From positions 1 through 64,000 of the forward strand of contig QPGO01000152.1 in the NCBI GenBank assembly GCA_008632985.1: DNA of 64,000 bases. Direction: 5' to 3'. The translations under genes were made by a program, and so were the position numbers. The notes under the pieces were generated by a model. It had not been told where the DNA came from. It saw only the letters and a program-made list of their open reading frames with translations, and did no database searches. Source of the stretch: Psammoneis japonica. Lineage: Eukaryota. Below, one piece after another: positions 1 through 22,807 of this stretch; the first letter of the stretch is position 1, and the number at the start of each line of letters is the position of its first letter.

Positions 1-1097
1 GCTCTTGAAAAGAGTCAGTCACCAACAACGGCAACAATGACATCCCTGCCTTGCAGGGAAAGTGTCTTGACAAAGACTCAGATGATGAAGATGACAAAAG
101 GAAGAAAACAATCAGCACACGCAAGGCTTCATTCGGTCGCTCCGACATGACACAGCGGGCCAGTCCGTCGAATCCAAGGTGGCTCATGTTGGTCCCACCA
201 GCCTGATGTGATCAAGCACAGCATTGCACACCAAGCCACTTCACAAGTCCAGCCCAACCAGCAACTGCTCCTTGCCACCGCTTGGTGTTTTGACCATGGA
301 CAATGTGAATTTCTCCACAATCCAGAGATCAAATGTGGAGACATTGTTGACACTGTCAATGTTCGTTGCATGATTCTGTTTAAAGAATGACTCCAATGTG
401 CAATTGGGGAGGCAAGTGCAGTGTGCATTTTCACATGCACATTCACAATTGTGAGTCATGAGTGTTGTGCACGTCATTTGCACCACAGTCGTGGGTGGAC
501 ACAAAGGACAGATCGATCACACACACAGAGTTGACAGGATGTCAAGAGTTGCAAATGCAGTTGATCAATGACACTGACAGACAGATGTCAATGCAAATCA
601 AGTGTGGGACAATCTGTTGTCATGATCAGATTCTCCAAGAGGCCTTCAGTTTGCAGAAGCAGTGCCAAGGCTTCAGGCCATTGAGGACCCCTTCAGAGAA
701 TCCCAAAACAGCAGAGTGAAATCTAATCTCATGATTTCTGCTTTTTGTGATTTGTTTCCACTTTCATGCACACTTGTTCTTTGAGCACAGCGCGTGCTGG
801 CATTTGAAGCATCAAGTCATTTGGGTGGCTCTGGCACTTGTGGTGGTTGGAGCCTTTGCACTGCCACAGGCGGTGATGGCTGGAGTCTTGCACCAAACAA
901 CAGCCAAAGCAGCCAGCATCAAGTTGAGGGCAACACTTGCACTTCAAAGCACTTGAAACTTTGAGCTCAGAGGCTGTTTTGTTCAGGGTCATCCAAAGTG
1001 CCATCAGCCTGCAGCACATTGTCAACCCTGTTGAAAGAGTTGTCCGGCTTGCAAAGCTTGATCACAATGTGAGATTTTTCCTTTCACTCATTGGCAC

Positions 1098-1371
1098 TGA
1101 CAGGATTTGAACAGGATTTGGTGCGCGCGAAGCATCGCGCGCTGTTTAGTTTACCGTGCACAGTTTTGTGTGCTTTAGTTCCGCGCGTTCACGCGCGATG
1201 TAGTTTGCTTTCGAGCCACAAGGCTCACAAGAACAACAACAGTAGCCCGATTGTGCCGACTTACACGTCTTCGGCTCCTGCAACGGTCTCTGAGCGGAGA
1301 CTCATCTGCCATTTAGACAGCAGTAAGGAGTCATTGTTTGAATTCTTGCCATTTGCCTTCATTTTCTGTCA
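1098..1371 (+). repeat. 5' LTR of element 1 (274 bp)
   Basis: TGACAGGATTTG...TTCTGTCA, nearly identical to 7922-8197. Confidence 0.93.
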
Positions 1372-1382
1372 GATTAACAGTC
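1372..1382 (+). promoter_or_regulatory. Putative primer-binding site complementary to a tRNA-Asn(GUU) anticodon arm (half-tRNA priming)
   Basis: GATTAACAGTC directly follows the LTR. Its reverse complement GACTGTTAATC matches tRNA-Asn positions ~30-40 as I recall them. Confidence 0.55.
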
Positions 1383-2308
1383 TTGCTCATTGTCAACCCA
1401 TTGAGCAACCGCCATCGTCGTCGTTGATTTACCAACGACGCTATTTCAATTCTACGTGGACCTCCGTGTGTGTTCTACATACATCGGCAAGTCTACGCGC
1501 ATNNNNNNNNNNNNNNNNNNNNNNNNNNNNNNNNNNNNNNNNNNNNNNNNNNNNNNNNNNNNNNNNNNNNNNNNNNNNNNNNNNNNNNNNNNNNNNNNNN
1601 NNNNNNNNNNNNNNNNNNNNNNNNNNNNNNNNNNNNNNNNNNNNNNNNNNNNNNNNNNNNNNNNNNNNNNNNNNNNNNNNNNNNNNNNNNNNNNNNNNNN
1701 NNNNNNNNNNNNNNNNNNNNNNNNNNNNNNNNNNNNNNNNNNNNNNNNNNNNNNNNNNNNNNNNNNNNNNNNNNNNNNNNNNNNNNNNNNNNNNNNNNNN
1801 NNNNNNNNNNNNNNNNNNNNNNNNNNNNNNNNNNNNNNNNNNNNNNNNNNNNNNNNNNNNNNNNNNNNNNNNNNNNNNNNNNNNNNNNNNNNNNNNNNNN
1901 NNNNNNNNNNNNNNNNNNNNNNNNNNNNNNNNNNNNNNNNNNNNNNNNNNNNNNNNNNNNNNNNNNNNNNNNNNNNNNNNNNNNNNNNNNNNNNNNNNNN
2001 NNNNNNNNNNNNNNNNNNNNNNNNNNNNNNNNNNNNNNNNNNNNNNNNNNNNNNNNNNNNNNNNNNNNNNNNNNNNNNNNNNNNNNNNNNNNNNNNNNNN
2101 NNNNNNNNNNNNNNNNNNNNTGCGGACCGGACAGGAAGTTTAGCACTTGACAACGAACGGGATGACAAACCCTGGCGACTTCTGATCTTAAGATAGTTCA
2201 AGATTTCAAGTCAAGTCCATTTCAAGTCAAGTCTGTTCTCACCCAAGTTTCGAGTCTGCCTTCGCTTCCCAACCAGAATTGATTGTCCTGACACCACTTT
2301 TGTCTGCC

Positions 2309-5300
2309 ATGGTTCTCACTCGTCAGCAACAAACCGATGGTTTCGAGCACGTGGTTGGAACCGTGCTTGCCCAAGGTGCTGGGAGTCCTCTTCGTTTGGC
2401 TTTGGCCCAAGACGGCACGGACTCGCATCAGGAACTGTTCACGTTCATGCCGTCCCAAATCGACTCGCTTGAGTGCGACAACGGCGCCAATGCAATCCCT
2501 TTGCCCCGTGGTCATAAGAACACCGTTAGCAGCACTGGTCAGTCTGTGCATTGTCAAAGCACACAAAGGTCTTGACGTTGCCAACGACTCCTCTTTGTTC
2601 ACGCATGACGAGTTCCTTGCCCACCGCCTCAGCCCCGACTGCATGTCTTCTGTGTCCATCGGCAGCTCACCCCTTGCACCTCCACATGTCACCAACCCGA
2701 CCAAGGCACGCGACCCGGTGCGGGACTTCAAGCGAGGCATCAAGCGTGATCCCACCGCTTTTACGGCTCTCAAATCCGACAAGCAGTGGCACACTTGGCA
2801 CACCTCACTTGTGGCACAAGCCCGTGCCCAAGACGTCGAGTGCATCTAGACTCGTCGTACAAACCGACCAGCCCCGAAGACAAACTGCTCTTTGCTGAAC
2901 AGCAAAAGTGCATGTTCGCCGTCTTCGAACGCATCCTTCTCACCGACAAGGGCAAGGCTCTCATTCGCGAAAATGTGGGGTCTTCTGACGCACAGACCGT
3001 CTGCCGCTCCTTGTCTGAGTGCGCGCTTGCCTCCACCCGCGCATCTGTCGAGTCCTCCACCCTGCTCACATGCCTCACCACCGCGCGTCTTGGTGATGGC
3101 ACTTGGAAAGGTCCGACCCACGGGTTCATCCTTCATTGGCAAGATCAGTTGCGCAAGTGCGAGGCACTCATCCCGGCCAGTGACCACTTCTCTGAAGGAC
3201 AGAAGCGCGTCATGCTCGAGAATGCCGTGCACCCTGTCGAGGAACTCCGTGCTGTCAAGAACCAAGCTGATCAGCATCTACGCAGAGCGGCAAGAGCCTC
3301 ACATGCGATCAATGCTGTGGCTTGCTCCTCTCCGCGCAGCTCAGCGCGACAGCACGTTTCAACCCAAGACGACACCTCGAGCTCCCCAACGTGCCACATG
3401 CACACACGACGTCTGCTCCGAGGAACCGTCCGACGATGTGTTCTACGACATTGACAGTGACGTTGATGTCCTTCAAGCCAATGCTGCCTGCACCGCGGTC
3501 CCAGCCTCACCGGTGTCCAATGGAGACGTCTCCCTCCCGACCACCAACGGCTTTGGGATTCGTTGCCCGATTCCTCCAGGGCGATCATCCTTGAGCATTC
3601 TCGTCCACCTCCCCGCAACCCGCGAGCCAGCAACTGCCATGAGTCTGTTACGGCCAACCTTCACGACCAACGCCTTGGGAGTGACGGTGATGTCAACTTG
3701 TCCAACACGACTCCCGCTGACTCTGGTGACTCCGCTCCACATGTGGACGCCACTTCGGATAATCCCATCCTGGCGCACCTCACCAAGCGCAAGCCACTGC
3801 CACCCGGTGATCTGCAACGTCTGTTGTCTCCCAACCAAGCTCCCAATGCCAGTCGACCGGGGCCATCCGCCGCTTCCTCTACCCCGCCAGCTTCTGCAGA
3901 TGACACAGAACTTAACGGCCGCACTTGCCACCGCGCCAACAACCACAATGTCATTTACTCTGCCTCTGCTCATCGCTCCACACGCACTGGCGCTCTAGTC
4001 GATCGTGGGGCCAACGGCGGCATTGCTGGCGACGACGTTCGCGTCATTGCACGCACCTCTCGCCAAGTCGACGTTCAGGGCATTGACGATCATCAATTGG
4101 TGGACATCCCCATTGTCACCGCTGGTGCCGTCATTGAGACCCAGCGTGGTCCCGTCATCGCCATCCTCCATCAGTGCGCATGCACGGGAAAGGGCAAGAC
4201 CATCCATTCCTGCGGCCAGCTCGAATGGTACAAACAGGATGTCAACGATCGCTCTGTCAAGGTGCCCAACGGCTTGCAACGCATTGCCACTCCTGATGGC
4301 TATGTCATCCCCATTGACATCAAGGCTGGCCTGCCTTGTGTTGCCATGCGACCTTACACTGACGCCGAATGGGACACCCTGCCCCATGTCATCCTCACCG
4401 GTGATGACACATGGGACCCTTCCGTCCTCGATCACTCTGTCACTGACGACGACCAGTGGTGCGACGCGATCTCTGACCTGCAGGACGATCCCACTGCCAA
4501 CCTGTTTGACGAATGCGGCAACTGCCGTCATCGTGTCGTTGTCAACGAGACCATCATGTCCGCTTCCTTGTCTGCCGATCACGCGTCCGCCCTCGATGAT
4601 CACCTCATTCCGAACGACGACGTGTTCTACGAGTGTCATCTGCATGCGATTGACCCCAAGGGCGATGACGTTCCACCTCCGGAGCGCACTGTACAGCCCA
4701 AGGACCCCCCCTTCGAGTCTCTTCGGCCTTGCTTTGGCTTCCTACCTGCCGATGCGGTCCGTCGTACTTTTGACTGCACCACGCAGTGCGCCCGCATGCC
4801 CGCCGGCACACACCTTCGCAAGGCCTGCAAATCACCCAACCCCGCCCTTAATGTGCACCGCCGCAACGAGCCTGTCGCCACTGACACCGTTTGTGCCGAC
4901 ACCCCGGCCGTCGACTCTGGTTGCACCAGCGCCCAACTGTTTGTTGGCACCGAGTCTGCCGTCACTGACGTCTGCGGCACTGAGACGGACAAAGAGTTTG
5001 TCAACACACTCGAGGATCAGATCCGTGAACGTGGTGCCCCATCCAAACTCATTGCGACCGTGCTCAAGTTGAGATCAGCAACAAAGTGCTCGGGATCCTG
5101 CGCGCCCTCTTCATCTCCAGCTGGCAAAGTGAGCCTCACCAGCAACACCAAAACTTTGCCGAGCATCGACACCAGACCGTGAAGCGCATGGCGAACACTG
5201 TCATGGACCGTTTTGGTTCGCCCGCCCACACATGGCTGCTGGCGCTCATGTGCGTGTGCTTCACACTCAACCATGCAGCGTCCCCACGTCTCCACTGGCG

Positions 5301-8109
5301 CACGCCCCTCGAGACTCTCACTGGATCCACCCCGGACATCAGCCCATTGCTTCGCTTTCACTGGTGGGAACCAGTGTGCTTCCACCTCGATGACTCCGAT
5401 TGGCCGTCCGAATCCCGTGAGTTGCGTGGACGCTTCGTTGGCATTGCTGAGCACGTCGGCCACCAGATGACCTTCAAGATTCTATCTGACGAGACTCAGA
5501 AGATCCTCTGCCGGTCCAACGTTCGCTCCGCTACCCCCGATCCTGCCGTTCGAAACCTGCGTCTTGATCCTCCTGATGGGGAGCCACCTGAACCCATCAT
5601 CAAATCTCGCCATGACGACAACCCCGTCGATTCTCCTGATGGGGAGATCAGGACACCCAAGATGCCAGTTTTCGATCCGCAAGACATCATTGGACGTACC
5701 TTCCTCATGCAGCCACAAGAGGACGGACAACGCCACAGAGCTCGCATCGTCAAGGCCGTCGAAGACCACGAATGGAAAGTGAACGGCAATCCCGAGCTCA
5801 CTAAGTTCGTCTGCTCTGTCAACAATGACGAATACGAGGAAGTCCTTGCCTGCAATGACATCATGAATCACATTGAGCAAGAAGACGAAGACACCACCAT
5901 TTGGAAATTTCGACGCATCGTGTCACACGAAGGACCTCTGAAGCCTCACGACCCAACCTGGAAAGGCTCAAGCTACAACATCATGCTTGAATGGGAAAGT
6001 GGGGAGATCACGTCCGAGCCTCTTGCCATCATCGCCAAGGACGACCCCGTCACCTGTGCCATCTATGCACGAGAGAACGGACTCCTCGACACGGATGGCT
6101 GGAAGCGGTTCCGCACCATCGCGAGGCGCCAAAAGAAGCTATTTCGCATGGCCAACCAAGCCAAGCTTCGCTCCTTCCGCACTGCACCTCGCCACAAGTG
6201 CGGATGCGAAGTTCCCCGGAACTACAAACACGCCATGTCACTGGACGAACGCAATGGCAACCGCAAGTGGGGAGACGCAACTAATCTCGAGATGGACCAA
6301 CTCGACGAATACGAAGTCTTCCATGACTGCGGGCCCTTCAAGTCTTCCACTCCTCCTGCGGGACACAAGAAGATCCGAGTGCACCTGGTGCACGACGTGA
6401 AACACGATGGTCACCACAAGGCAGGACTCGTAGCCGACGGGCACCTCACGGACGTGCCCATCGACAGTGTCTACTCCGGAGTAGTCTCCCTCCGTGGCCT
6501 TCGGCTGATGATTTTCCTGGCCAAACTCAACGAGCTGGAGACATGGGCCACCGACATTGGCAATGCCTGCCTTGAAGCCACCACCAAGGAGAAGCTTTAC
6601 ATTGTGGCTGGACCCGAATTTGGCAAACTCGAAGGACACATCCTTGTCATCCACAAGGCACTGTATGGACTCCACAGCTCCGGTCTCCGCTGGCACGAGC
6701 GCTTCGCCGACTGCCTGCGAGCTGAAGGCTTCTTCCCCTGCCACGCCGAACCCGATGTTTGGATGCGCAGGATCGGCGACCACTGTGAACACATTGCCGT
6801 TTATGTGGATGACCTCGCCATTGCCATGAAGGACCCTCAATCTTTCGTCGACACTCTCACGGAAAAGTGCAAGTTCAAGCTCAAGGGTGCGGGACCCATT
6901 GAGTTCCATCTGGGTTGCGACTTTTCCCGGGACCCCGACGGAACCTTGTGCCTGTCTCCGCGCAAGTGCATCAAGCGCATGGTCGACAGCTGCGCCCAAC
7001 TGTTTGGGGAGAAACCTGCCACCAACGCCCTGTCACCTCTAGAGAAGGGTGACCACCCCGAACTGGACACTTCCGAACTGCTGGGACCCGATGGCATTCA
7101 CAAGTTCCAGTCTCTTGTTGGTTCACTCCAATGGGCAGTGTCCCTTGGTCAAATTGACATTGCCACGGCCGTCATGTCACTCTCTAGCTTCCGAGCTACG
7201 CCCCGTCAAGGCCACTTGGATCGTGCCAAATGCGTCTGTGGGCACCTCTCCAAGATGCGACACGGTGCTCTCCGCGTTCGCACGGAAGAGCCCGACTGTT
7301 CGGATCTCCCTGCTCCGGCCTGTGAATGGATGCATTCCGTGTGTGGTGAAGCAGAAGAGATGATCCCGAAGGACGCTCCACCGCCCCTTGGCAAGTTCGT
7401 CACTGCCACCCACTGCGTCGATGCAAACTTGCACCATTGCATGCTCACCGGACGCTCTGTCATGGGAATGCTCCACTTCCTCAACAAATTCCCGGCTGAT
7501 TGGTTCTCCAAGAAACAAGCCACCGTGGAGACTGCAACCTGCGGATCTGAATTTGTTGCCGCAAGGAATTGTGTTGAGCAGATTGTCGACCTGCGCATCA
7601 CCCTGCGCTGCCTTGGCGTCCCGATCCGCAATGTCAGTTGCATGTTCGGTGACAACAAGTCGGTTGTAGACAGTGCCACCATCCCGCACTCCAAGCCACA
7701 CAAGCGACACACCGCACTGTCGTTCCACCGTGTGCGTGAGGCAATTGCCTCTGGTCACCTTGAGCTCCACTTCATCGAAGGCTCCCGCAACCCTGCTGAC
7801 ATTCTCAGCAAGCATTGGGGTTGCTCCCAAATCTGGGACCTTCTCCGCCCCCTCATGTTCTGGAACTTCATTCCATCCGAAGTCGAATCTGTTTCTGTGG
7901 CTCCTCAAGCAAACTGGGGAGTGACAGGATTTGAACAGGATTTGGATGCGCGCGAAGCATCGCGCGCTGTTTGGTTTGCCGCGCACAGTTTTGTGTGCTT
8001 TAGTTCCGCGCGTTCACGCGCGATGCAGTTTGCTTTCGAGCCACAAGGCTCACAAGAACAACAACAGTGGCCCGATTGTACCGACTTGCACGTCTTTCGG
8101 CTCCTGTGA
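2309..8109 (+). pseudogene. Frameshifted gag-pol polyprotein of element 1
   Basis: Fragments in ORFs 2279-2575, 2337-2849, 2786-3454, 3563-5182 and 5086-8109. Motifs include DRGANGG, TDIGNA(C)LEA, ALYGL, YVDD, (C)GSEF, DNKS, HRVRE and NPAD. Confidence 0.9.
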
Positions 8110-8197
8110 CGGTCTCTGAGCGGAGACTCATCTGCCATTTAGACAGCAGCAAGGAGTCATTGTTTGAATTCTTGCCATTTGCCTTCATTTTCTGACA
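7922..8197 (+). repeat. 3' LTR of element 1 (276 bp)
   Basis: Preceded by a purine tract; aligns to 1098-1371 with ~10 substituted sites and 2 single-base indels. Confidence 0.93.
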
Positions 8198-8202
8198 ATC
8201 TC

Positions 8203-8507
8203 AATCACTTTTCGGTTCAGAGACTGGCTCTGAACCTCTCACAACATCCAAAACACTCTTTTGTGCATGGCATGACCTTCTCTGCTGTGGTTTGCTCCAG
8301 CTGGCCTTGACGTTCGGCACAGGACTTGACCACCCTTCTTGTGCCAGGGTTTTCCAGATTTCAAATCACTCCTCGGTTCAGAGACTGGCTCTGAACCTCT
8401 CACAACATCTGAGACACTCTTTTGTGCATGGCACTGACCTTCTCCAGTTTGTTCTAGCTGGCCTTGACGTTCGGCACAGGACTTGATCGCCCTTCTTGTG
8501 CCAGGGT
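8203..8507. repeat. Tandem repeat, ~161-bp unit, ~1.9 copies, interrupted by element 2
   Basis: AATCAC..CGGTTCAGAGACTGGCTCTGAACCTCTCACAACATC...GTGCCAGGGT starts at 8203 and again at 8364. The unit end resumes (AGGGTTTCCCAG) at 15435. Confidence 0.85.
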
Positions 8508-8676
8508 TTATGGACCAGCGGCATCGGGACAATCTAACGGATGTCTAGGACAGATGACAATCGTGTGCTAGATGAGAAAGAAAGTGAGCAAAGGAGAGAT
8601 CATCGGATCTCTCCATGCTGTCTGTGCTAGTCTGTCCGACACAAGGGAGTGTGATCCCCATCTCGGATGTCTGTCA
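8508..8676 (-). repeat. 3' LTR of element 2
   Basis: Ungapped match to 15266-15434. Confidence 0.92.
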
Positions 8677-11600
8677 CCCTCCCCTGATGAGCAATGCAAT
8701 GCTCAACAAGAAAGAAAGAGACGATCCGAATAAAAAGAGAGGACCAGAGTGGCAAAGAACAAAACAACCCACGGCCTTGGTCAGTGCATCAGCAGGGTTA
8801 ATGACACCCGGGATGTGTCGAGTGACAATCTTGCCCGCGTCACGCCAGCCTTGGACAGCAAAATGTTGAACATCAACATGACGAGATCGCTCCGCAGGCA
8901 CCTTGTTGTTGATCATCTGGGTGGCAGAGGAGTTGTCAATGTGCAAGGGAGTGGGATCACATTGGGGAAAACCCAATTCTTCCAGAACCATGCGGAGGTG
9001 CAGGGTCTGTTTTGCAGCAGTCACAGCCGCGAGGAACTCAGCTTCCGTGGAACTGGCAGCGGCAATCGTTTGCGTGCGGCATCGACAGTCAATCGCAGCA
9101 CCAGCAAGGACATGCGCACAGCCAGCAGCAGAACGGCGACGCCACAGTTCATTGCCATGTGCCGCATCAATGAATCCAAGAAGTTGGAAAAGGTCAACAG
9201 CACGAGGAAAATCCGGGAGAGATGGGTCATCCTCAAGCCATTCAAAATCGCAAGGAGGTGGGCCGGGATCGCGTTTAGACTTCTCACGGGTCAGTCCCCA
9301 ATGTTTGGTGTGCCGCAAATGCTTGGCCATGCGCTTGAGTGAATCACAATGGAGCTCAGCCGGTGCCTTGGAAAACTTGGACAAGGTGACAACAGGACAC
9401 CCAATGTCCAAACGACAACAGGAGCAGGCAAAGACCAATTCACCCAAGACAGAACAGTGCGAGAATCCTTGGGACTCAGCAAGAGTGTCATGCTCGGGTG
9501 CACCCTCTTCAGGACCTTCAGCAGTGTGCAGATCAGGAATGCAATCAACCGGAACAGGGGCGGCCTTGAAATCAGAATCAGACTCATGTGCATCGGGAGC
9601 ATCCCAACCATGGGTCTTGAAAACACGGTCAAGGCAGCTGGCAATGTTGACAGTGATTGAGTCGTCATTTTGAATGACATCAATGCCATTGAAAAAGCAA
9701 CCAAGCCCAAACACTTGAAGGGAGGAGTGTCCTCATTCTCGATCTGGAGAGCCCCACCAACATGGTCGCAGATCTCTTTCGCAATCTTTTCAGATGGACA
9801 AGCAAGAGCAAAATCATTGACCTGACAAAGGAGGAGGACCTTGACACCATCATGTTCACCGGAATGGATGCACTTGTCATGAGCAATGTTACGGAAAAGA
9901 AGTTTCTCACCCGTGAGAATCGAATTGACGTGCTTCTCCCAGAGGACACCAGCTTCAGGATGGCCTTGAAGAGCATGCTTGAGTGGGAGAACATGATGGC
10001 GGGGTGCTTTCTTGCCAAATCGCTTTTCATGCCAGGCAGCACATGCATCATCAACAGCAACAAAAACCGGTTGGGATGGGCCAGGAGAATGAGCGCAGGC
10101 ATCCCGTGCATCGCCGCCGAAGACACGATGCGACACAGCCGCACTGAGAGCGAAAAACATCTTTTCGACAGAACGTTCCACTCATGACGAATGGGTGGAA
10201 GTCAACTTGTGCAAGGCCGGCATTGCCAACTTGGAACCATCACCACATTGTTGGGAGCGACGTTGGCCATCCGGCTTTGCCATGCAATCCCAATGCGGAC
10301 GCATGACATTCGCGCCAGGGGACGTGGTTGCGGAGGACCACACATGCCCAGGGCACAAAATTGGTCCAGTTGATGCTGCTCGCCTTCTTCCCATTCAGGC
10401 CATGTGTCAAGTTTACGAAGCTTGGCACGGGTGAGACGGTCAAGAGCAGCTTCCTCCTGAGTGAGTGAGCGAGAGCCAATCGCATTGAGATGTGCATAAA
10501 ATGCATCCGCAGGAATGGCCTCATCCGAAAAATCATCATCGGGACAGAGAAGAGCCACAACAGATCGCACATCCTCCAAAGCAAGTTCAGGAACATGAGA
10601 GTCGTCCTCCACAGTGTCCGGCTCAAATGACTCCGCTTCCTCAAATGCCTTGTTAAGAGTGCGAGAATCCAATCGTCGTTCCGGCGCAAAAGCAATCTCG
10701 AAAGTTGGAATTTTGTCATGAAAGACCTGAGACAAGGCCTCTTCAGCATCGGAAGGAGTAAAGACTTCACGCTTGTTGACAGAGACAACATGTGCACCCA
10801 CAATCTTGTTGCAAGCAGCACGGAGGGAAGAAAACAATGAAGCCGCAGGACTGCACTGCTTGATTTCCGACACACAGACACGGTCCATTGGCGCACACTG
10901 AGAAAATCCAAAACCATGAGTGGGGTCCTTTGGAGGACGTTTCATGGTGCATGTGATGGTCGCAGCAAATGGATTCGACGAAGACGCAAACATGGGAATG
11001 GTGGTGTCCTGTGTTTCAGCTGGAAAAGGCTGACCATTTTCCACACGCTGTAAATGGACAGCATTGGGAGGGAGTTGATCCAAAAATGGGTCACCCACAC
11101 CTTCATCACAGCGCACATGCTTGGCCATCTTGACTTCATCAGTCTCAGGATCCCACCACATGACATTCTTGAGGGTGTTGGGAAGGCAACCAAGGAAGAC
11201 ACCCTTCTTGGAATTGGTCTGGAAGGCAGCAGAACGAGCAGTGGCGTTTGAACCATGCTTGACATCCGAAAGTCTTCAGAGCAGTAAAATCTTCGACCTT
11301 TCCGGCAGCAAGAGTGATGGGTGCCGCATCTTGATCTTTTGCAGGAGCGGCATTCTTGACACGGAGGTGGTGGTAAAATGCATGGGGCCAGAATCGGATC
11401 GGAAGGTTGGCACCAATTAAAATCGCACGAATCGCGTTCTCAACAGTTGGGTGTGAGCGTTCAACAGGCCCACATTGGTTGGATGCGCCAGCACCAGAAG
11501 GACAGATGTCATGCTGGAATTCTCGTTCAAAGAGGTCACGAACTTTGGGGTTTTTGCACAATTCCCCACCTTGGTCCACAAACACACATTTGTCACGACA

Positions 11601-14600
11601 ATTCCGTGAATGTCGATCCAAGAATCGGTGAAGCCACTTGAGAGGACTGGCCTTTGAAACCCTTGCTACGCCATGGAGCATCCGCGTGTGATGATCATAG
11701 ACAGCAATCCAACATGTTTCACCATTGTGTCCAAGACAATCAACCTTGCGGGCTTCATTCTTGGAAGTCTGGCCAGCAAAAGCAAAATCGACAGTGAGAC
11801 CTTGGTGTGGTTGGGTCGCCTTCCGAGTCGTGTTTGGTCCAGCAGGAGTCTTGACTTGCTTGGCTTGGACACACGCAGGGCATGTGTCAAGGACAGGATT
11901 AGCATGACAGAACTTGGGGACGCCCTTGACACACTTGTGAGCATTGTGCAAGCAGTGATCACTGGGGTGTCCAAGGCGTTGATGCCACAGAAGACGTTCA
12001 GTCTCAACCTTGAGAGAGCGGACAGGAGCAGGGGCAGACAACGGAGCTGAGTCACACTGCATCGAAAATGGCTCAGCATCCATCAGCAAGGGATCAGATG
12101 GACCTTGTTGGACGTTGACAAAAAAGACTGCACGTTGACATGCATCATCAACGTCATCAACCAAGGACAAGTCAGGGGTCGTCGATGTCGAGGGGACACC
12201 AGACGGAGACGGAGGAACCAGGGGTTGTGTGAATGCCTTGCCATGTCGAAGCACACCATGGACAACTGCCGCTTGTGCATCAGTGGAAGCAGTGCAAGTG
12301 CAAGTGCCATTGGCACATGTCTTCTCAAGGAGCTCGGAGCGAGTGGACTGAGATTTGAAACCAGAAGCCCACGCAAAATCACCTTCATCAATCAAAGTGG
12401 ATCGTAGACTGGGATGGTAAAAAGCACGTACGAGAAGAAAGCCTTCAGGGTTGTCTGCAGGCACCTGTGGGCATCCAAAGCCATGAGGAACCGCATCAGA
12501 GCCTTCAGCAGCCGGAAGCATCTTCAAAGGGCATGGGTCATCCGGTCCAAAAGGAGCACATGCGTGGAGGAGGTTCTTGTCCCCTGTGCAGGACACCCAA
12601 GCACCAGCATCAATCTGTGCACGATGTGTTGTTGAATCACGAAGCACATGATTGATGGGAACAACTGGGGCAGCAAAGGATGCAAAGGTCGCAGGTGACT
12701 CCGGGGGAGAAAAAATCGGGGAGATGCGTGCGGCACTGAGAGGCGACAAATGCTGGGTGTCAGTCACATCAAGATGCTCAAATGCTTGGTCTTGATCAGT
12801 GGACAATGGAGCATCAGCATCCAATGTAGGAGGATCGAATTCCCTCCCCTGATTGTGATTGCCAGGGTCATCATCAGGAATCGTCTTGGGATCAGGAGCA
12901 CCAGCCTTCATCGAGCTCGAAAGAAGGGTGGCAAATGAGACAGGTGAAAGAGGAGGATCAGCAGAAGGCAACGAGTCGTTTGGACCCTCTTTCACAGTCA
13001 CCCCGCTTGCAGGAGTTTTCGGATTGGAGGAGAATGGGCAGCATTGTTTGTCCGAACACAACAATGGCCCCAGGAAAAATCCTTCTTGGCCGTGCCAGAC
13101 TGAAGTGCATCACGAGCACGCTGGTCACGTTGAAGAAACTGGGAGAACCGAATGAGATGGGTGCGCAGGTGCTCAGCATTGTTCAACACAGGACACTCAT
13201 GGAACAAGTGGTTGTTGCCACAAACAACACATGGACGGTTCTGTGCAATGGCAGGCGAGGACTTGATCCCACAGATGCAGGCCTTGTAGACACCATGGAG
13301 GGCTTGTGCATCATCATCTGCAGGAACATCCACAGTGGCAAGTTCATTTACAAAATGTTCCACAGTTTCCGTGGGTTCTTCCACAGGAGGAGAGTCAGAT
13401 TCCTTGGGAGACTCTTCAATCGCTGGAGGCGGAGTAGAAACTTCATCCTGGGGAAGCAATTCAAGACCGCGGACAGGAGCTGCGAGAGGAGGAGGAGGCG
13501 AAGTGTGAAGACAATGTGGAGGACATTTGGGAGGGTCCTTGACACGTAGAGCTGGGCCATCCGGTTCCTTGAGAATCGCACCAACGGTTTCAACAATCTT
13601 CTTCTGGGTGAACTTGTGTTGTTTGGTCTTGTCTTCCCGGGCGTCCGCTGTTTTACGGTGAAGGTGCTCGCCATGGCGGGTGTTGCTGAGAAAAATGTCA
13701 AGCTCACCAGGGTCATCAAGAGATGCATCAACATTGGAGATGACAGCTCGCAGCTGAAGGCAGTCTCTGAACAGAGCATGACAGCAGGTGGCTCTCAATC
13801 AACTCATGCGGACGCTTCGTCCAAATTGGTGGGATGTCAAAGAGAATCATCTTGACAGCTGCGTGTCCATCACCACAACATTGGCGAACGATGTCAGGGC
13901 ACTTGGAGTCTGCCGGAAAAATTCCAACTTTCTGAATGTGCTGGAAGATGGTCAGTTTCATTCGGTCAAGTGCTGCCATCATCCGGAGAGGCAGATCATC
14001 GGTGGGATCATTGCCACAAGTGAAACCCCAATTTCCACCATCCTTGATGAAACACCACAGAGGATGCACACATGTGCCACAAGCCGAGGCTTGTTGGGTT
14101 GCAGCAATGCACCATGCACGGATTCCTTGAGGAGAGATGTCATCACAAGTGAGAGGATCACGAAGGAATGATTTTGTGTCCCAGTCAGTGTGATGAACAA
14201 AGAGTGAACCATCAGCAAGGATGAGACGCTCAGTGCCATCCTCGCAACAAAGGTTTCCAGACTTGCAGGGTGCCAGGGATTCGCCAAGTGCTGCTTTCCC
14301 AGCTTCCTTGCGCTGACAGCGGGCCAGTGCATCCTTTGGAAGTCCTTTCGGATTAAAGGTGTGTGTGGCACTGGCAGCAGTCGATGAAGAAGCCATGCCA
14401 GCAGCAGTCATGGCAGACGGTGCAGGAGACGACACCTTGGGAGTGGAGTTCTTCAGTGCGTTTGTCACAGCTTGCTCAAACTGTTTTGGACCAGGCAAGT
14501 GAGCAGCTGGGGCCTTGGCAAAGTCTTCAGGAGTGGGACCTGCAGTGGCAACTGGTGTAGATGCAGAACTCAAAGTGGTCGGTGGATCCGGGTGCGGATC

Positions 14601-14771
14601 ATCAGAGATGTCATCCCAGCAATCACAACATCGAAAACGAGGGCTGAAACAGAAACGTAGAGTCCCAACACACAGATGTGTGGCATCGTCGTTCTCTGAA
14701 ATCACCTTGATCACAGTCTTCTGAAGAGTGCTGAGGTTCAGACGAACCGGGGGGCCTTGAGGAGCAGCCAC
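8674..14771 (-). pseudogene. Frameshifted gag-pol of element 2
   Basis: Fragments in ORFs 13728-14771, 12998-13798, 11145-13064, 10202-11161, 9291-10181 and 8674-9714 carry copia motifs in the expected order. Confidence 0.9.
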
Positions 14772-15255
14772 AAAGAGAGGAGCCTTCTCAATGATCGGTC
14801 CAATTTGTGCAAGATCCTCAGTCTGGAGAGCTTCAGGGATGATGAGATTCTGAACGATCTCATGTCAGAGGATGGCAACAGCGTCGCTCTTGAGGCCTTG
14901 AGGGGCAAATCCATCCAAAAGATCTTCAGGAGCAGGGATCTCGTCCAAATGAAGAGCATTCAGGAAAATGTGAGCATCGGGTGTGCGATTGTGTGGGCTG
15001 AATTCAACCCGCATTGTCTTGATCTTGGTCAAATTGACGGCGTTTGGATTTTTTGTTCACCATGGTTGCGCGGGAAAAAAATTAAATTCCTGTGCAGAGC
15101 TCTGGTGTGTGTTCTACGGTGGTCGTTTGATCACAAATCGAGAGGTGAAAAAATGGCTGTGACAATGATGACGATTTCAACAAAGAAAAAGTCGCCAAAT
15201 CACACAACAGGCACTGCAATGGATGAGCACAGAGGAAGAGGAACAGTGCACTGCT

Positions 15256-15265
15256 GCTCACAACC
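15256..15265 (-). promoter_or_regulatory. Putative PBS for tRNA-Met half-molecule priming (GGTTATGAGC, mutated to GGTTGTGAGC)
   Basis: Abuts the 5' LTR. Plus-strand GCTCACAACC equals the Met anticodon loop GCTCATAACC with one TA->CA change. Confidence 0.65.
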
Positions 15266-15434
15266 TCACGGACTAGCGGCATCGGGACAATCTAATGGAT
15301 GTCTAGGACAGATGACAATCGTGCACTGGATGAGAAAGAAAGTGAGCAAAGGAGAGATCATCGGATCTCTCCATGCTGTCCATGATAGTCTGTCCGACAC
15401 AAGGGAGTGCACTCCCCATCTCGGATGTCTGTCA
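15266..15434 (-). repeat. 5' LTR of element 2
   Basis: Begins TGACAGACATCC on minus; matches 8508-8676. Confidence 0.92.
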
Positions 15435-16842
15435 AGGGTTTCCCAGCTGCGAAATTCTGCGCAAAACAAACAGTCTGCAAAACAAGGAAGAGTGAGCAAG
15501 CTGAGCTGGTGAACAGCTGTTTGCAATCATGGATTGATTGCCCACCTTTTGCAAATGTTTGCAAACTTCAGCGAGCATCGCCGGCCATGAGGCGAAATTT
15601 CAGAGAACGGCACGCTGGAAAACTGATTTTTGCACACAAAAACTGGCTTCCAACTTTTGCACACAACTCACTGCAACAGCATCTCTCTGCTCTTCACCAG
15701 CTGCTGCCAGCAGCAGCTGGCAGTGGCAGCCAGCCAGAGAGCAGTCTCCACTGCAGCAGAGCAAGTCACTGTCTTCCGGGTCCGGCTTGTCAAAAGGTGC
15801 GGCAAGCTCAGTGGCAGAGCTCAGCCAATCACAGGACGAGGTCGGGGGTTCGAGTTCCTCCCTTTTTCCGCACTCACGTGCTTAAAAACAAGGCTGAAGC
15901 AACGCGTCATCGCGTGCACGCGAGCTGTTTCTAACAGCCCACAGGAACAGCTCGTGTTTCGTGTTTGCAAACAGGTTTGCAGTCGAAGACAGTTGCCAAA
16001 CAAATCCTGGTTCTGACAAACGCTTGTTGCAAATCGCAAACAAGCAGTCTGGTGAACAGCTGTCTGCCAGTTTGTGAACTCCATTCGCGGTTAGAAAATG
16101 CTGCTTCTTGCCTTTCATGGAGACCCGCTTCAGTTTCTTCTTCTGTCAACGATGTCGTCTGGGCGGGTCACTTTTGAACAGAATCAAACAGCAAGTGTGC
16201 AGTCATTGGTTTTGTGCAGGAATCATGCAGAATGTGCAAGCAAAACGATCATTGTGACTTTTCTTCATGCAGAAGCCACGTGAAATCACAGTGCATTGTT
16301 TCACTGGTGCATGAACAATGACCAAAAAACCAGTCATGCGACACACTTGCCGCATCATGAGAGTCAGCAAGTGATTGACATGGCGACCGGAGCTGTGGCT
16401 GATTCCGGAATCAGAACACGGTGCAAGCCGTGGTGATTCCAGATGTCACCACGGTTGAAGTTTGCTGGCATAAAAAATGTGCAGGAACTGCATTGGGCAA
16501 CGGGATGTCACAACAGAAATGCCACCATTCCTGTGCATCTTTGTGGATGGATGCATGCACTGCATCAACCAGCTCCCCTTTTCTCCATTCACAGCAACAA
16601 CTGTTGTGACGCACCGACAGAACAACAACACAGCTCACTTTTTGGATCGAGGCGTTTTTTGCCATCTGGCGAGTTAAAATGCTGGCAACACTAAAATGCT
16701 GACAATGCCAACACACTGGCAACACTGTCATGTTGTCCTTCCCCATTTTGTCTAAAAGAACATTGTCCCACATCATTCCACAACCACTGCAGCTCCTCTT
16801 CTCATCCCCAAAGTCTTGAACTCACTCCCCCAAAAAATGAAC

Positions 16843-19262
16843 TCACCCCAAGAGTTGTGTTTCTTGGAGCTTAGATTGAGCAAGCTTGTCTTTGAGGGTT
16901 TGACGCTTCATGCCCGCTTGTGCCATGGTGTCCTTGAGATGGCAGATCTCTTGATCTTGGTTGCTGATGGTTTGCTCTTGGTTTTGAGTTGTTCCTTGCA
17001 CAGTCTCAAGCTTCAACTCCAAAGTTGCATGATTTGACCACAGCTGCACTGTCTCTTTCTGGGCATCACAACACTTCTGGCCCATTTTCTCAAGAGAGCT
17101 CTTCACTTTCTAAATGGAGTCATTGCAGTGATCAGTGCAATCCTCCAAAGAAATGATTGAATCTTTCGTGTGCATGCTGTTGACCCGTTCCTGGAGCTCA
17201 GCATTTTCCTTTTCCCCACCAAAGATGTTGATTCGGAAAGGTCATTGTTTTTCAACTTCAGCACAGCATTGGCAGATTCTGTGTCAGCAACTTGAGATTC
17301 CAGTGTCTGAACAGCAGACTCTGGCTCTGTTTTCTCTGTGTGCAAACTCGCCAATTCCAAGGACAGCACCAAATGACCCCTCAATGATGCAGCCTTGTTG
17401 GACTCTGTGAGGTTGCCACAGATGATGCTGGAACAGCAGCTCCATCTGCAAAGGTGGCTGCAGCTGACACACCCTGAACCAACACATTGTAGACCAATGC
17501 ATTCTGAGCCAACACACTCTGAACCACCGACGTGTTCTGAACCAATGCGTTCTGAACCAATGAGTCCCCAACCGATGCTTTCTGAACTGACACATTCTGA
17601 ACCGACGTGTTCTGAACTGACGCACCCTGAACCGACATGCCCTGATTCCCAGCCAGCATGTTCTGCACTTGATGGTCAAGCAAATTGCTTTGATGAACAC
17701 ATGGCAACTGGCTCTCTGACGAGTTGTGCCTCACATGAGTTTGCATCTCTTTCAGATGCAAGTCAGCAGATGCCAACAAAGTGATCATCAGTGCATGGTT
17801 GCTGTGGCTGGTGACTTGAACCCAGTTGTCGAAACTGCACAGCTGAGCAACGCACTTCATTTTGTCAGAAATGACATTGATGCCAGTGACACCCGCAGTC
17901 TTTCCAGGCCTTGCACGACAGGCTAGACCATCTAGTTTGCACTGTTGCTTTTGCTTGTCCATCGCCTCTCAGTGCAAAAATCTCTCTTGATCCAGAGGAC
18001 ACCAAGTCCGATGCGCAGCAATGAGCTTGAGCGGACACATGGGGTTCATGGGCATTTCACAAACATGCATTCTGTCAAGGAGCTGCTTTTGGAGCACGGG
18101 ACTCTTGATCCTTGGTTTGTTGACTTTGTCCTCATCAAGTTGCACCCTGACATGCAACTTCCCAATGTCCGGTCCAGATTCATGCTTGCCCATTGTCACA
18201 CTGTCCCATGTGAGACAGGCAATCTCCTTGTTGCCACGCAAACCAAAACAGCACCCTGGCACAAAAACCAATGCAGGTGTCATGTCTTCACAGTCTTCCA
18301 TGGGTCAAAACTTGCCTTGACAGATTTTTGCTGCTGTCTTCTGATCTGCCCTGATGTCGACGTGTGACTTGTTCTTGCCAATGCCAAATGGCCTGTCCTC
18401 CTGTTGCTGCTTCTTCCATTCATCTTCCAAAATGGAGCACCAGCCGCCTTTCTGTTTGAATTCCTTGTCTTCATGCTTGCACTGAATGCTGTGTCTTGCA
18501 AAGGTTTGAAAAAGTTGCTTCACGCACTGAGTGAACGTGGATGGCTCATGCATTTCACCAGTCTTTGTGCATTGCGCCAGCGATGGACAACAAGAACAAG
18601 ACAGAAATTCAAAATCTCATGATTGTGCTGCGTTTTCTCTCCCGCAAGTGTCTTGCAGAAAACCCGCACAGTCTCAATGGACTCTTCTGACTTGATTTCT
18701 TTAAGAAGATGCTGCAGCCTCTCACCGCCTGATTCTTCCATTGTCACAAAAAAGCGCACCTCCAACTTGTCTCTTGCATTTAAATGCCAAGCTGAAATGC
18801 CAGAAGCCTTCTTGGTGTTTTGCATTTCTTGCAAAGTGAGATCTGAGCTAGAACACATCCTGCAGTGAAGGCTTTTGGCCAGTTCTCTTGACACATTTGC
18901 TCGTCATTGCACTCCAAAGCAGGTGCAGCAGCAGGTGCTGCAGCTGTTGTTGGCGCCGCTGCATGTGCCACTCTGGTGCATTGGCGTTGGTGTTTGAAAA
19001 TGACCCGTCATTCCCATGATGTTCATCATGGCATCCACCAGCATTGTCATTGCAGCCAAAGCAGTCAGCTTGAGGTGGAGCAACAGCATTGGATGTTGAT
19101 GCATTGTGCAAGCCCACAAGAGATTTGACTGCCATTGCCGTGTTTTGCATCAGTGGCTGGCAGGGTGTCTTGTTTGTCTTCTTCTTCTTCTTCTTCTTCT
19201 TCAGACAAGCTGCTTGACAATTGATCAGGCAGATGAAAGCTGCTGTCTTCTTCAAAATTCAT
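16843..19262 (-). pseudogene. Heavily decayed coding remnant(s): coiled-coil, pentapeptide-repeat and acidic segments; identity unknown
   Basis: Protein-like fragments in successive minus frames (LELASLHTEKTE...LESQVADTES; VQNxS repeats; EEEEEEE) inside TpA-depleted DNA. Confidence 0.35.
17470..17640 (-). repeat. ~15-bp minisatellite (TCTGAACCRAYRYRY-like) encoding VQNxS pentapeptides on minus
   Basis: About 10 degenerate TGAAC-containing units; translation SVQGASVQNTSVQNVSVQKAS... Confidence 0.8.
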
Positions 19263-21136
19263 CTTTCACAAGCAGCACTGTCAAATCTGTTGTGGAGCAA
19301 AATCAAGAATCAAAACGCTCAGTGTGAGAGCAAGAAATGTGCGAAGAACCAATTTTTCAAAAATGAATGTCGGACCGTTGCGAGTGCCAGTCATTGGCGT
19401 GCAAAAAAAAAAGCCCACAGTCAACAATCAACAACAGCAACGACACTTGTGCTTGACAAATTCCCTCAACAAAAACCATTCCTGCACTGTTGCTGTTTGA
19501 CTCCTCATGCAATCTGTGCTCACCACCAAACAGAATCATCTCTCCCACACTCGCACACTCACCTCGGGTCGTTTGATTTCTCATCTTGTGTCAACTGCAT
19601 CTCCACTTGCCTTGAAATCGAACTCCCCTTGGTTCATGTTGGACTCGGTGCTTGTTCTGATTCCTCACGGAATCACATGAAATCACGCACTTGCGCTGGC
19701 ATGCTCGTGACATGATTTCCGTGTGACTCCGTTGATTTTGCCGCAGCTGTCATGTGATTGCTGCTCAACAAAAGTGCAGCAAAGTCGAGCAAGTCAAACT
19801 GCAATGGCAACCAATTTTGCCGTGCTTGACATGGTTCAGAAAGGTGTCGCTCACATCTGGCAGCATGACACTGGCTGCCACCTCAACGAAGGTGGAACTC
19901 TTTTTTGTCAAGCCGCCGATGGTTTCCAAGTTGTTGATGACTTCATTGGTCTCAACATCTGCAACTTTGCTGACAATGGTTTTCAGGTGGTTGCACAACC
20001 TTTTTGGACATGTGTCATTGTGTCCAAACCACCATCAACACAATTCCTGTGGGCAAAGTTGCTGATCCTGCAAATGGTGCTCTCAAGCTGCTGGCGCCAC
20101 TGCTTGAGCTCCAATCACTGTCCAAGCAAAGGCACCTAAATCCAAGAAGGAAAAGAACCTCAAGAAGAGGACCGCTGATGCACAAGCTTGTTTCTCATTG
20201 ATGTTCTGCCACAAGACAGTTGGATCTGATGATGCTGTCACCCTCAGCCAGCACAAGCAAGTCTTCATCAAGGCTTTTCAAGAGTCAAGCAATGCAGAAT
20301 GTGCTTGTTTCATCAACAAGATTGTTGCCATGAGCTGGTGCATTCTTGCGGCTTGCATTGCTCAGATGTTGTTTGTTTCATGGAGGTGGAAACACAAGAT
20401 TCAATGTGAAGGCTTGCTGAAGAGCAGAGTGCATGCCTTTTCTGTGATCTTCCAATCTTCCAGAACAAGAAGCTCCTTTGCTCTTGTTGACAATGGCTTT
20501 CAAACTGCAGAACCTCCTCCTTGTGCCCCAGCACCAACAGCATTCACAAGCACCACGCAGCTGCAACAGAGCCAATCCAAGCTGTGAGAGTCGCACAACA
20601 ACCAACCCAACGACCGAACGGGTGCAACAAGTGCAAAAAGGAAGACATTTGGCACAAACACAAGGCATGAGTTCCAGTCAATTTTGACTTAATGGTGGTG
20701 TGCAATGAACAATTGTGGCATCTGCCTTGCCTTGGTTGCCAACATGAGATGGACTCATTGCTCAACGATGATTGAGACTGCGTTGCAATTGAACTGTTGG
20801 TTGACGCGCTACTGGGGATCGTTCCATTCACCATTTTGTTTTGGTGGCATCCCATCCATTCGGCGGGGCTTTGTTCATGCTCTGCTGCTCAGGCGTCTAT
20901 GCCGAACGTTTCATCCTCACCCCACACGTCAGGCCGTAGGTAAGGTACGGCAGGTAGACTCCCTTGCAGGGTTCGTCGGTTCTGCTACAAAATTTTGAAG
21001 TCGCAAGTTAAACCGCCCATCTAGTCATTTTTAATTTTGCTTTCGCGATGATGTGGGCGGTCACCAGAATAATCGCTAATAATGTTGACATCAATCTCCC
21101 ACAGCCCCGACGGGGGATTTGGTTTCGGAAAGAAAT

Positions 21137-22084: not shown

Positions 22085-22807
22085 CGTCGCGCGACTTCTT
22101 GTTCTTTTCTCTTTGGCCTCGACACGTATAGTGGATAACCTTCTACAAGAACAATTTGGTGATCCTTCTCTGTAGTTGATATTCAATATAGGAGCACGAG
22201 TTCACTCTCTGGACCCCAGCGCTGTTAGAATGAAGAGAGAATAGTACGGTCGCTATCGCGTGCCCGATGCCCGAATGCGAAGGGTGATTTGTGATTTAGA
22301 TTTTAGATTGTTGCTTCGGGCCGAAATTCGAAATGCCGAGCTTCGTGCACGTACCGGTACGTAGAGACCGTACCGGCAGGGGAAATTTATCAGCATTCTA
22401 CGTACAGTGCTGTAGAATGTCCGATTTGTATGTGTAGATTACGTGGCACAGTGCCACAGAGGTCATTGACTCCAAGCATCTCGACATTGCTGTCCAGCAT
22501 GTCAACATCTTCAATCACAATGTCAAGGGTCTCAATGTGCATCTCCATGCCGTCAAGGACCACAATGCTCTTTTTGAACGTGTTGTGGCAGCCCCTGACC
22601 CCGACAACCCTCAAAGTGTTGACGAATTTTTCGACCCCAATCACAATGCCTGGGACCATGCGACCCGCAACATGATGACCGAAACAGTTGAAAATGTCAC
22701 TGCTTTGGAGAAGCACATCAATGCCATGGTCACTGGTTGCAAGAAACCTTCTGAAGGTTGCTGTTCTGTGCCAAGCAAACCCTCTGAGGGTCGAAGAAGC
22801 AACGGCT

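Follow-up and report, generated by a model that had tools for sequence, protein, structure and literature searches.

Why is the dinucleotide TpA almost missing from the left end of contig QPGO01000152.1 of the diatom Psammoneis japonica, directly beside genes that carry it in abundance? In the window analysed here (the whole stretch of 64,000 nucleotides, positions 1 to 64,000 of the forward strand), a block made up of 1-1097 and 2121-20900 (19,877 bp) holds 108 TpA, compared to 771 expected at host frequency (Poisson P ~1e-197). The observed/expected ratio (O/E) of TpA is 0.56 for host DNA at 20901-64000, and in 1-kb windows it ranged from 0.00 to 0.24 in the block (n=19) and from 0.31 to 0.87 in host DNA (n=40; Mann-Whitney p=7e-10). 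The depletion is thus real and far beyond chance. A rough dinucleotide balance of the block gave losses of TpA (-663) and CpG (-280) and gains of TpG (+439) and CpA (+634), and the right border is sharp, with a final sparse TpA at 20898 and dense TpA from 20937. The first-pass annotation had placed the stripped span at 1..20900, with TpA abundant in the host genes beyond; we reproduced its counts (two TpA in 1-1097, at 381 and 724, and 17 in 15440-20800) and found the flanking gene DNA of the window to be without depletion, but the span holds for 1-1097 and 2121-20900 and not for 1098-1502, where 15 TpA remain. As TGA is the sole stop codon in TpA-free DNA, long false ORFs arise in all six frames, and 40 ORFs with 150 aa or more overlap 1-22000. 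The features are collected in Table 1.

Table 1. Stripped and unstripped features at the left end of the window.
Feature	Position	Strand	Description
Stripped stretch	1..1097		TpA-stripped, CpG-poor; O/E: TpA 0.03, TpG 1.71, CpA 2.00, CpG 0.27
Fragment B	1098..1502	+	Unmutated; 1098-1371 is the 3' end of the element A family
Unrelated sequence	1372..1502		Unrelated; runs into the N gap
Gap	1503..2120		N
Copia element A	2121..8197	+	gag-pol 2655-7896; RVT_2 E=2e-24 and full-length relatives
Tandem units	8198..8509		~150 bp each, 8203-8352 and 8364-8509; TpA-poor
Target duplication	8503-8509, 15435-15441		7 bp, AGGGTTT; flanks element C
Copia element C	8510..15434	-	LTRs 8510-8676 and 15268-15434 (167 bp)
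Stripped stretch	15435..20900		5.5 kb; 19 TpA, O/E 0.05, lowest of the long segments
TpA-free island	22441..23325		886 bp; isolated within the gene-rich part

Two Ty1/Copia elements make up much of the block, element A being recognized by RVT_2 and its relatives and element C by gag_pre-integrase, its relatives, an LTR pair and a target duplication. Full-length relatives map by tblastn across the whole gag-pol of element A, which is frameshifted near 2840 and at 5035-5089; its LTRs were not found because of the gap upstream. Element A is hypermutated at TpA (O/E 0.17 in gag-pol) but not yet depleted in CpG (O/E 0.92). At 27 columns in which Tyr is conserved among 60 aligned homologues, it retains 7 Tyr and has 14 Cys, 3 His, 2 Phe and 1 Trp, such that relatives keep Tyr where element A reads Cys or His at 17 of 27 positions. 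Other residue classes are 66-100% kept, and the commonest non-Tyr changes are likewise of TpA type (I>V, T>A). The overall composition is shifted accordingly, to 0.9% Y, 3.4% C and 5.4% H from means of 4.1%, 1.2% and 3.6% in 120 homologues. Among the individual sites that had been cited as former Tyr codons, six are borne out by a Tyr majority, at 6568 (60/60), 7414 (48/60), 7540 (54/60), 7609 (58/60, 2 gaps), 7822 (49/60, 2 gaps) and 6364 (39/60), and two are ambiguous, namely 6391 (Phe 37, Tyr 23) and 7432 (Met 22, Tyr 20, of 60). These comparisons show that the proteins were ruined through amino-acid replacements (Tyr→Cys/His, Ile→Val/Met, Thr→Ala), with no stop codons made.

Fragment B provides a reference from the same family. 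Its TpA O/E is 0.58, it is 95% identical to 7922-8197, and across 276 columns it differs from element A by seven single TA<->TG/CA changes and one TG<->CA double, the other differences being one of CpG type, one transversion and two indel columns. In this polarised comparison the two copies differ almost only at TpA. The element A family has the highest copy number, with a summed depth in run X1 of 30,000-160,000 compared to about 60 (54-68) for single contigs, and fragment B, which partly belongs to it, is unmutated though it lies between stripped stretches. Variant places among copies of the family (n=491) comprise 435 transitions and 55 transversions; among the 40 of the 491 that were listed, 10 form five CA<->TG doubles, 6 are single TA<->TG/CA changes and 15 are of CpG type.

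Additional evidence came from element C. Its relatives align over 8734-12623, and a Pfam scan detected gag_pre-integrase (E=5e-7) but no RVT_2 match in this element, an example of how TpA-stripped DNA evades HMM detection. None of 16 Tyr conserved in 150 relatives is kept, 9 having become His and 5 Cys, and O/E values over 8511-15434 are 0.09 for TpA and 0.60 for CpG. The two LTRs are identical in 154 of 166 columns. Eight of the 12 differing columns are of TpA type (three TG<->CA doubles and two TA<->TG/CA changes) and the remainder are two CpG-type differences and two transversions, which gives an indirect estimate of change at roughly one in two detectable TpA of each LTR, compared to ~1% of other columns. 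As the LTRs of this insertion differ mainly at former TpA, including TG versus CA, the mutations are best explained as having occurred on the integrated DNA, although such differences could in principle arise by gene conversion with other copies. By a rough estimate, the process at TpA outpaces other substitutions 50- to 100-fold, and it also outpaces CpG decay.

Stripping extends beyond the two Copia elements. The tandem units are 89% alike and are separated by two TG<->CA doubles (8198-8510: 2 TpA, O/E 0.11). The stretch at 1-1097 showed no Pfam match in its 8 ORFs and no Copia similarity, and 15435-20900, with O/E of 1.77 for TpG, 1.71 for CpA and 0.43 for CpG and a longest run without TpA of 1288 bp, gave no credible Pfam match among 55 ORFs; the latter is apparently low copy (summed depth 97-236, versus 54-68 for single contigs). 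Given this stretch and the unmutated fragment of the very high-copy element A family, the first-pass description of the process as repeat-restricted goes further than the data. Beyond the block, the island at 22441-23325 is bounded by TpA at 22440 and 23326, whereas the mean host spacing is 26 bp (P ~1e-15); its TpG/CpA O/E is 1.4-1.9 and it has no Pfam match. In the older parts of the block 5-methylcytosine deamination is also at work (CpG O/E 0.27-0.60). Deamination at CpG likewise yields TpG/CpA, but it cannot remove TpA, and element A lost most of its TpA with CpG almost intact.

The same signature, copy by copy, was found in a metagenomic Copia family whose host is a diatom. When copies were polarised against the consensus, A:T→G:C changes were in excess at TpA: for A>G, copy L058 reached 0.48 at TpA and 0.045 at other A, and for T>C 0.30 at TpA and 0.065 at other T, whereas copy L032, of similar background divergence, showed 0.05 and 0.10 at TpA. 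At converted sites shared between copies the outcomes are independent (L058 and L072: 30 same, 27 different), and the aligned copies thus show what reads as copy-wise action. We then pooled seven hypermutated copies of this family (contigs versus majority consensus) for context. Their consensus TpA now read TG (165), TA (143), CA (105) or other (22), and conversion was 0.43 for TAC, 0.40 for TAT, 0.17 for TAA and 0.14 for TAG, both strands alike. To judge from these alignments, the target is 5'-TAY-3', with TAR about three times less prone, and the two strands are equally hit once context is allowed for. The TAY preference is present in each of the seven copies (p 4e-7 to 0.07). Akin to this, surviving TpA in the window are enriched in YTAR (45/108; host 18%) and poor in RTAY (10/108; host 29%; chi-square p=1e-10), and Tyr codons of the window elements gave Cys 12 : His 4 after Y and Cys 7 : His 8 after R.

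Read from these comparisons, the direction of change is TpA→TpG/CpA, i.e. A:T→G:C at TpA. The first-pass annotation had gone further and fixed it as A→G on either strand; the A:T→G:C part stands, while A→G and T→C are inseparable in all data because TpA is its own reverse complement. It had also named three kinds of observation that could overturn its reading, namely Tyr in relatives, polarised spectra and flanking DNA; all were examined and none went against it. We consider it very probable that decayed mobile DNA (two Copia elements and at least two unclassified stretches) underwent a targeted TpA→TpG/CpA process in the nuclear genome of the diatom. The process works on DNA that is already integrated and double-stranded, one element at a time, and ends at the element edge. 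The candidate chemistry is the conversion of adenine to hypoxanthine, which would be read as G.

A related explanation is that the same targeted process acts on thymine, the T in R-T-A being enzymatically modified and read or repaired as C, and by virtue of the self-complementarity of TpA such T→C changes would be indistinguishable from A→G. We regard this as unlikely. Excision of a modified T yields mixed outcomes, whereas 270 of 292 changes at consensus TpA in the seven metagenomic copies are TG or CA, nearly pure transitions as expected of hypoxanthine:C pairing, and the preference for T at -1 and C at +1 resembles that of TadA-type adenine deaminases.

Slightly less probable still is A-to-I editing of transcripts by an ADAR-like or fungal-TAD-like activity, fixed by reverse transcription and integration. 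That the clearest targets are retrotransposons, that sharp element edges suit a copy arriving already mutated and that element A has 14 Cys versus 3 His, resembling sense-strand A→G, would all fit such a scenario, but the ratio is reversed in element C (9 His versus 5 Cys), and strands convert alike given the 3' base, whereas sense RNA alone would be inherited. Unclassified, non-coding and tandem-repeat DNA is stripped as well, and the low standing of G, the least favoured 3' base (0.14), is unlike the preferences of ADAR. With both strands changed and the LTRs of one insertion (element C) non-identical at former TpA, fixation of RNA editing by retrotransposition is largely refuted.

Native TpA avoidance by composition or selection, or acquisition from a TpA-poor genome, could draw on the fact that moderate avoidance is common, as in the host DNA itself, yet the O/E of 0.03-0.17 lies far under that of 80 related Copia loci (0.24-0.91; 72 at 0.47 or above), and with conserved Tyr turned to Cys/His against 60 and 150 relatives in elements A and C, and same-family copies differing at exactly TpA-type sites, this explanation is refuted and has scarcely any probability left. 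Equally implausible are GC-biased gene conversion or generalized decay of repeats, and errors of sequencing or assembly: repeats do recombine and the block adjoins an assembly gap, but A>G and T>C at non-TpA sites have only about a tenth of their frequency at TpA, the signature recurs in unrelated metagenome assemblies, and contigs from a public DNA run, which may be the assembly's own source, carry the same sequence as the window.

Among known systems, fungal RIP turns C:G into T:A, with CpA as its main site, so that TpA and stop codons arise. The footprint described here resembles it in being a permanent, dense, in-place transition mutagenesis of mobile DNA in a dinucleotide context with neighbouring genes spared, but RIP itself is rejected as the cause: the direction is opposite (TpA lost, Tyr→Cys/His) and no stop codons are created. 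ADAR hyper-edits dsRNA and prefers a 5' U, and APOBEC3 edits retroelement cDNA; both are deaminase-type hypermutators directed against mobile or viral nucleic acid. They act before integration on the information of one strand, whereas here the changes affect both strands of integrated DNA, disfavour a 3' G and are not of the C→T type.

The closest counterpart was reported for the chlorarachniophyte Bigelowiella natans, in which integrated NCLDV and virophage DNA is hypermutated at TpA (Mettrop et al., bioRxiv 10.64898/2026.01.13.699255). As described in the main text of that preprint, changes are nearly only A→G and T→C, occur only at TpA and are limited to integrated foreign DNA, the remaining genome being normal; the live rate reaches ~1000x background, though only in some lines, the DNA is left in the long term low in TpA and high in CpA+TpG, and TpA-poor CDS are enriched in RT and DDE Pfam families (10.64898/2026.01.13.699255). 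Compared with that account, near-pure A:T→G:C transitions at TpA are common to both cases and activity is uneven in both, between lines in B. natans and between copies here. The host differs (a stramenopile diatom versus a rhizarian), as do the targets (LTR retrotransposons versus NCLDV/virophage DNA), and live mutation was measured there while only the footprint is seen here. Stripping is fuller here (O/E 0.03-0.17 versus Rho 0.45 for the B. natans NCLDV region), and the 3' pyrimidine preference and LTR-pair evidence are absent from the preprint's main text ('context', 'trinucleotide' and 'flanking' 0x each). By analogy, we take the process in P. japonica to be of the same kind. The first-pass annotation knew of no description of it in diatoms, and our literature search likewise found no report of TpA hypermutation for diatoms, although the process itself had already been described in B. 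natans.

Concerning the effector, the native substrate of TadA is U33-A34-C35 in tRNA-Arg. TadA and ADAT2-ADAT3 share with the present target a pyrimidine before the adenine and a C after it, and early TadA-derived DNA editors strongly prefer YAC (PMC7056309). By contrast, the present target takes T and C equally well at +1 and has T at -1, and the natural TadA/ADAT enzymes work on single strands or on loops of RNA. A putative DNA-acting TadA/ADAT-type deaminase making adenine into hypoxanthine is the leading candidate, to which we give about even weight; such an enzyme would be recruited to silenced, foreign chromatin, and the process would serve as genome defence, like fungal RIP with opposite chemistry. 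No deaminase family match was obtained among the scanned ORFs of the window (in 20901-64000, the non-overlapping frames among 52 ORFs of at least 130 aa). Somewhat more tentatively, diatoms and chlorarachniophytes may share a dedicated defence, in which a TAY-specific DNA adenine deaminase, recruited copy by copy, erases the TpA of silenced mobile and viral DNA in place.

To our knowledge, RIP-like mutational defence has long been regarded as a fungal speciality. The footprint reported here is newly seen in diatoms, its kind having been reported once before, in an unrelated alga. Its full form on diatom retrotransposons, together with that in an environmental diatom, extends the process to major marine primary producers, suggests an ancient origin or a wide distribution in the SAR clade, and adds mechanistic detail (integrated DNA, both strands, a TAY target and copy-wise action). 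Should a natural adenine deaminase exist that acts on DNA in chromatin, it would be relevant to base-editing work. If the shared defence is real, it would represent a version of fungal RIP directed at adenine, widespread in marine phytoplankton and shaping the decay of their transposons, and gene catalogues would be contaminated by the stop-free pseudo-ORFs that it produces.

TpA is stripped from most of the left end of the window, with an abrupt right-hand limit. In 1-kb windows, the observed/expected ratio (O/E) of TpA was 0.00–0.25 at 1–1000 and 2001–21000 and 0.27–0.82 farther right, and the edge could be located between 20898 and 20937. Per segment, the ratio was 0.03 at 1–1097, 0.17 in the Copia element A, 0.09 in the Copia element C and 0.05 at 15435–20900, as opposed to 0.56 in the host part (20901–64000). 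The TpA-poor block (1–1097 and 2121–20900) holds 108 TpA versus 771 expected from the host frequency. A recount reproduced exactly the numbers given by eye in the first-pass annotation (2 in 1–1097; 17 in 15440–20800), but its interval of 1–20900 needs one correction at 1098–1502, where TpA is normal (O/E 0.58); an N gap follows at 1503–2120. The dinucleotide shifts in the block (TpG +439, CpA +634, CpG −280) sum about equally, so that the TpA and CpG losses roughly match the TpG/CpA gain. TpA loss outpaces CpG decay, since element A retains a CpG O/E of 0.92 at its TpA O/E of 0.17.

Features of the window that bear on TpA loss
Feature	Coordinates	Strand	Description
Element A	2121–8197	+	Copia, nearly full-length; RVT_2 match
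Element C	8510–15434	−	Second, distant Copia; gag_pre-integrase match
TpA-free island, 886 bp	22441–23325		Sharp edges; mean TpA spacing in surrounding gene-rich DNA 26 bp
Endonuclease V gene	47660–48343	−	PF04493, E=1e-28
Weaker TpA-poor patch	56245–57003		O/E 0.08–0.16 (400-bp windows); end of CAP-Gly/inward-rectifier channel ORF

Full-length relatives of element A align across 2655–7896 with two frameshifts, while those of element C align across 8734–12623; element C is bounded by LTRs of 167 bp and flanked by a perfect 7-bp duplication. The element-A family is a very large Copia family. The runs listed as containing the block comprise one public DNA run, X1, whose contigs match it, and no RNA run. 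In X1, summed contig depth over 2121–8336 was 30,000–160,000 versus ~60 per single contig, with 4145 family copies at a likeness of at least 99%, 4718 at 95–99% and 4902 at 90–95%. Segments 1–1097 and 15435–20900 and the TpA-poor islands showed no Copia similarity (tblastn, 276 Copia proteins), and 83 ORFs from them gave no Pfam match better than E=0.011. The host is a diatom: the best named relatives (57–63% identity) of the GPI-anchor gene at 40041–41474 occur only in diatoms (best unnamed match, 69%). An 81% identical direct repeat (32296–32660 / 32815–33167) lies inside a 1407-aa ORF (32053–36276).

The direction of change can be read from conserved tyrosines, which the first-pass annotation had seen replaced by Cys or His in copia Pol. 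Alignment of element A Pol to the best-scoring 60 of 120 listed relatives (58–66% identical, except two at 44% and 54%) bore this out: 27 conserved Tyr columns read Tyr 7, Cys 14, His 3, Phe 2 and Trp 1 (Cys/His at 17 of 27), whereas other residue classes were 66–100% kept. The commonest non-Tyr changes, I>V (4) and T>A (2), fit the same process, because TpA→TpG across a codon boundary yields both. In element C none of 16 conserved columns (150 relatives) retains Tyr; they read His 9, Cys 5, Ser 1 and Phe 1, that is, Cys/His at 14 of 16.

The LTRs of one element are identical when it integrates. Those of element C have since diverged at 12 of 166 columns, comprising three TG-versus-CA sites (6 columns), two TA-versus-TG/CA, two CpG-type differences and two transversions, with no further transitions in these columns; three TpA are common to both LTRs. 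A TG-versus-CA site is as expected where a single ancestral TpA was hit independently in each LTR. By this comparison, some 50% of the TpA detectable in each LTR changed after integration versus ~1% of other columns, an estimated excess of roughly 50–100-fold. Fragment B (1098–1371) is an unmutated piece of the element-A family; across 276 columns it differs from element A by seven single TA↔TG/CA changes, one TG↔CA double, one CpG-type change, one transversion and two indel columns. The surrounding 1098–1502, part of which is the 3′ terminus of the highest-copy family, has normal TpA between stripped DNA and the assembly gap. Possible explanations are a recent insertion, a copy that escaped targeting and a mis-join at the contig end. 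Family copies in the X1 contigs (the one public run containing the block, which may be the assembly's own source) vary in the same two ways, at TpA and at CpG, with 435 transitions and 55 transversions over 491 variant places; 40 of them, those listed, comprised 10 places in five CA↔TG doubles, 6 single TpA-type, 15 CpG-type and 9 other.

With Tyr-poor relatives as query we recovered 80 metagenome loci that belong to a different Copia family. At the protein level the differences between two relatives, P0394 and P0267, are chiefly Y>C (8) and T>A (6); the best locus was 78% identical to P0394, and a family pile-up was used instead of this pair's DNA. Eight loci had a TpA O/E of 0.24–0.44, the other 72 of 0.47–0.91. 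A peroxin-3 gene adjoining one copy has named relatives in diatoms only. Copies were polarised on the majority consensus, five near-duplicate loci being excluded, and seven were hypermutated. In one of them (L058), A>G reached 0.48 and T>C 0.30 at TpA, as against 0.045 for A and 0.065 for T elsewhere, whereas another locus (L032) of similar background divergence had TpA rates of only 0.05 and 0.10. Pooled over the seven copies, consensus TpA read TG 165, TA 143, CA 105 and other 22.

Conversion in these copies varied with the nucleotide that follows the adenine, at 0.43 before C, 0.40 before T, 0.17 before A and 0.14 before G, with equal values for both strands and the same rule in each of the seven individually. 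Surviving TpA in the window block showed the matching skew (YTAR 45/108 versus 18% in host DNA; RTAY 10/108 versus 29%; p=1e-10). A sense-strand (transcript) bias, suspected from the Cys:His ratio of 14:3 in element A, was rejected in view of the 5:9 ratio in element C together with the 3′-base rule; context accounts for the apparent bias (Cys:His in the window 12:4 for Tyr codons after a pyrimidine, 7:8 after a purine). Runs tests on nine copies found neither strand-coordinated runs of TG and CA (P 0.08–1.0) nor regional clustering of mutated versus unmutated sites (P 0.09–0.91) to be significant, and converted sites common to L058 and a second copy, L072, had the same outcome at 30 and a different one at 27. 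Conversions are interspersed along copies and independent from copy to copy.

Taken together, the process is DNA-level and, within the window, apparently element-limited A:T→G:C mutagenesis at TAY on both strands. Adenine deamination is the simplest underlying chemistry, and the preference for −1 T and +1 C/T resembles that of TadA-type enzymes, judged partly from their tRNA substrate; that the process is directed at thymine instead of adenine is unlikely. Silent chromatin or small RNAs may recruit it. Endonuclease V nicks at deoxyinosine, and the gene in the window, though probably a housekeeping gene, is relevant to any adenine-deamination model. The TpA-free island in gene-rich DNA (TpG/CpA O/E 1.4–1.9; a 31-nt inverted repeat, 22808–22838 / 23022–23052; no Pfam match) is probably a small stripped insertion; the sole family match of the weaker patch is a faint one to Transpos_assoc (E=0.013).

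TpA hypermutation cannot introduce a stop codon, the products of TAA being TGA or CAA and those of TAG being TGG or CAG, and long frames therefore stay open on all strands of the block; TpA-free DNA keeps TGA stops only, hence long stop-to-stop ORFs. Between 1 and 22000, 40 such ORFs reach 150 aa or more, with overlaps on both strands. An RVT_2 domain was not matched in element C, though relatives align to it. Stripped regions can thus give false genes and mask real domains, and public catalogues contain stripped copies called as proteins. Nine metagenome-derived Copia proteins (P0267, P0292, P0308, P0330, P0362, P0363, P0373, P0391 and P0085) have 0–1.7% Tyr with Cys/His raised.

The first-pass annotation knew of no such process in diatoms, and there the claim stands: our literature search, which covered few subscription journals, found no report of TpA hypermutation in diatoms, its sole match being a preprint on Bigelowiella natans, and a word look-up in two diatom transposon papers (PMC2806351; 10.1101/2025.10.24.684338) found no such process described. 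In general the process is not entirely new, as that 2026 preprint (Mettrop et al., bioRxiv 10.64898/2026.01.13.699255) describes TpA-only A→G/T→C hypermutation of two integrated viral regions at ~6e-7 per site per generation, reports RT and DDE domains enriched among TpA-poor CDS and proposes an ADAT2-like deaminase; its main text mentions neither diatoms, stramenopiles nor flanking context. Our finding extends this just-described kind of hypermutation and adds mechanistic detail.
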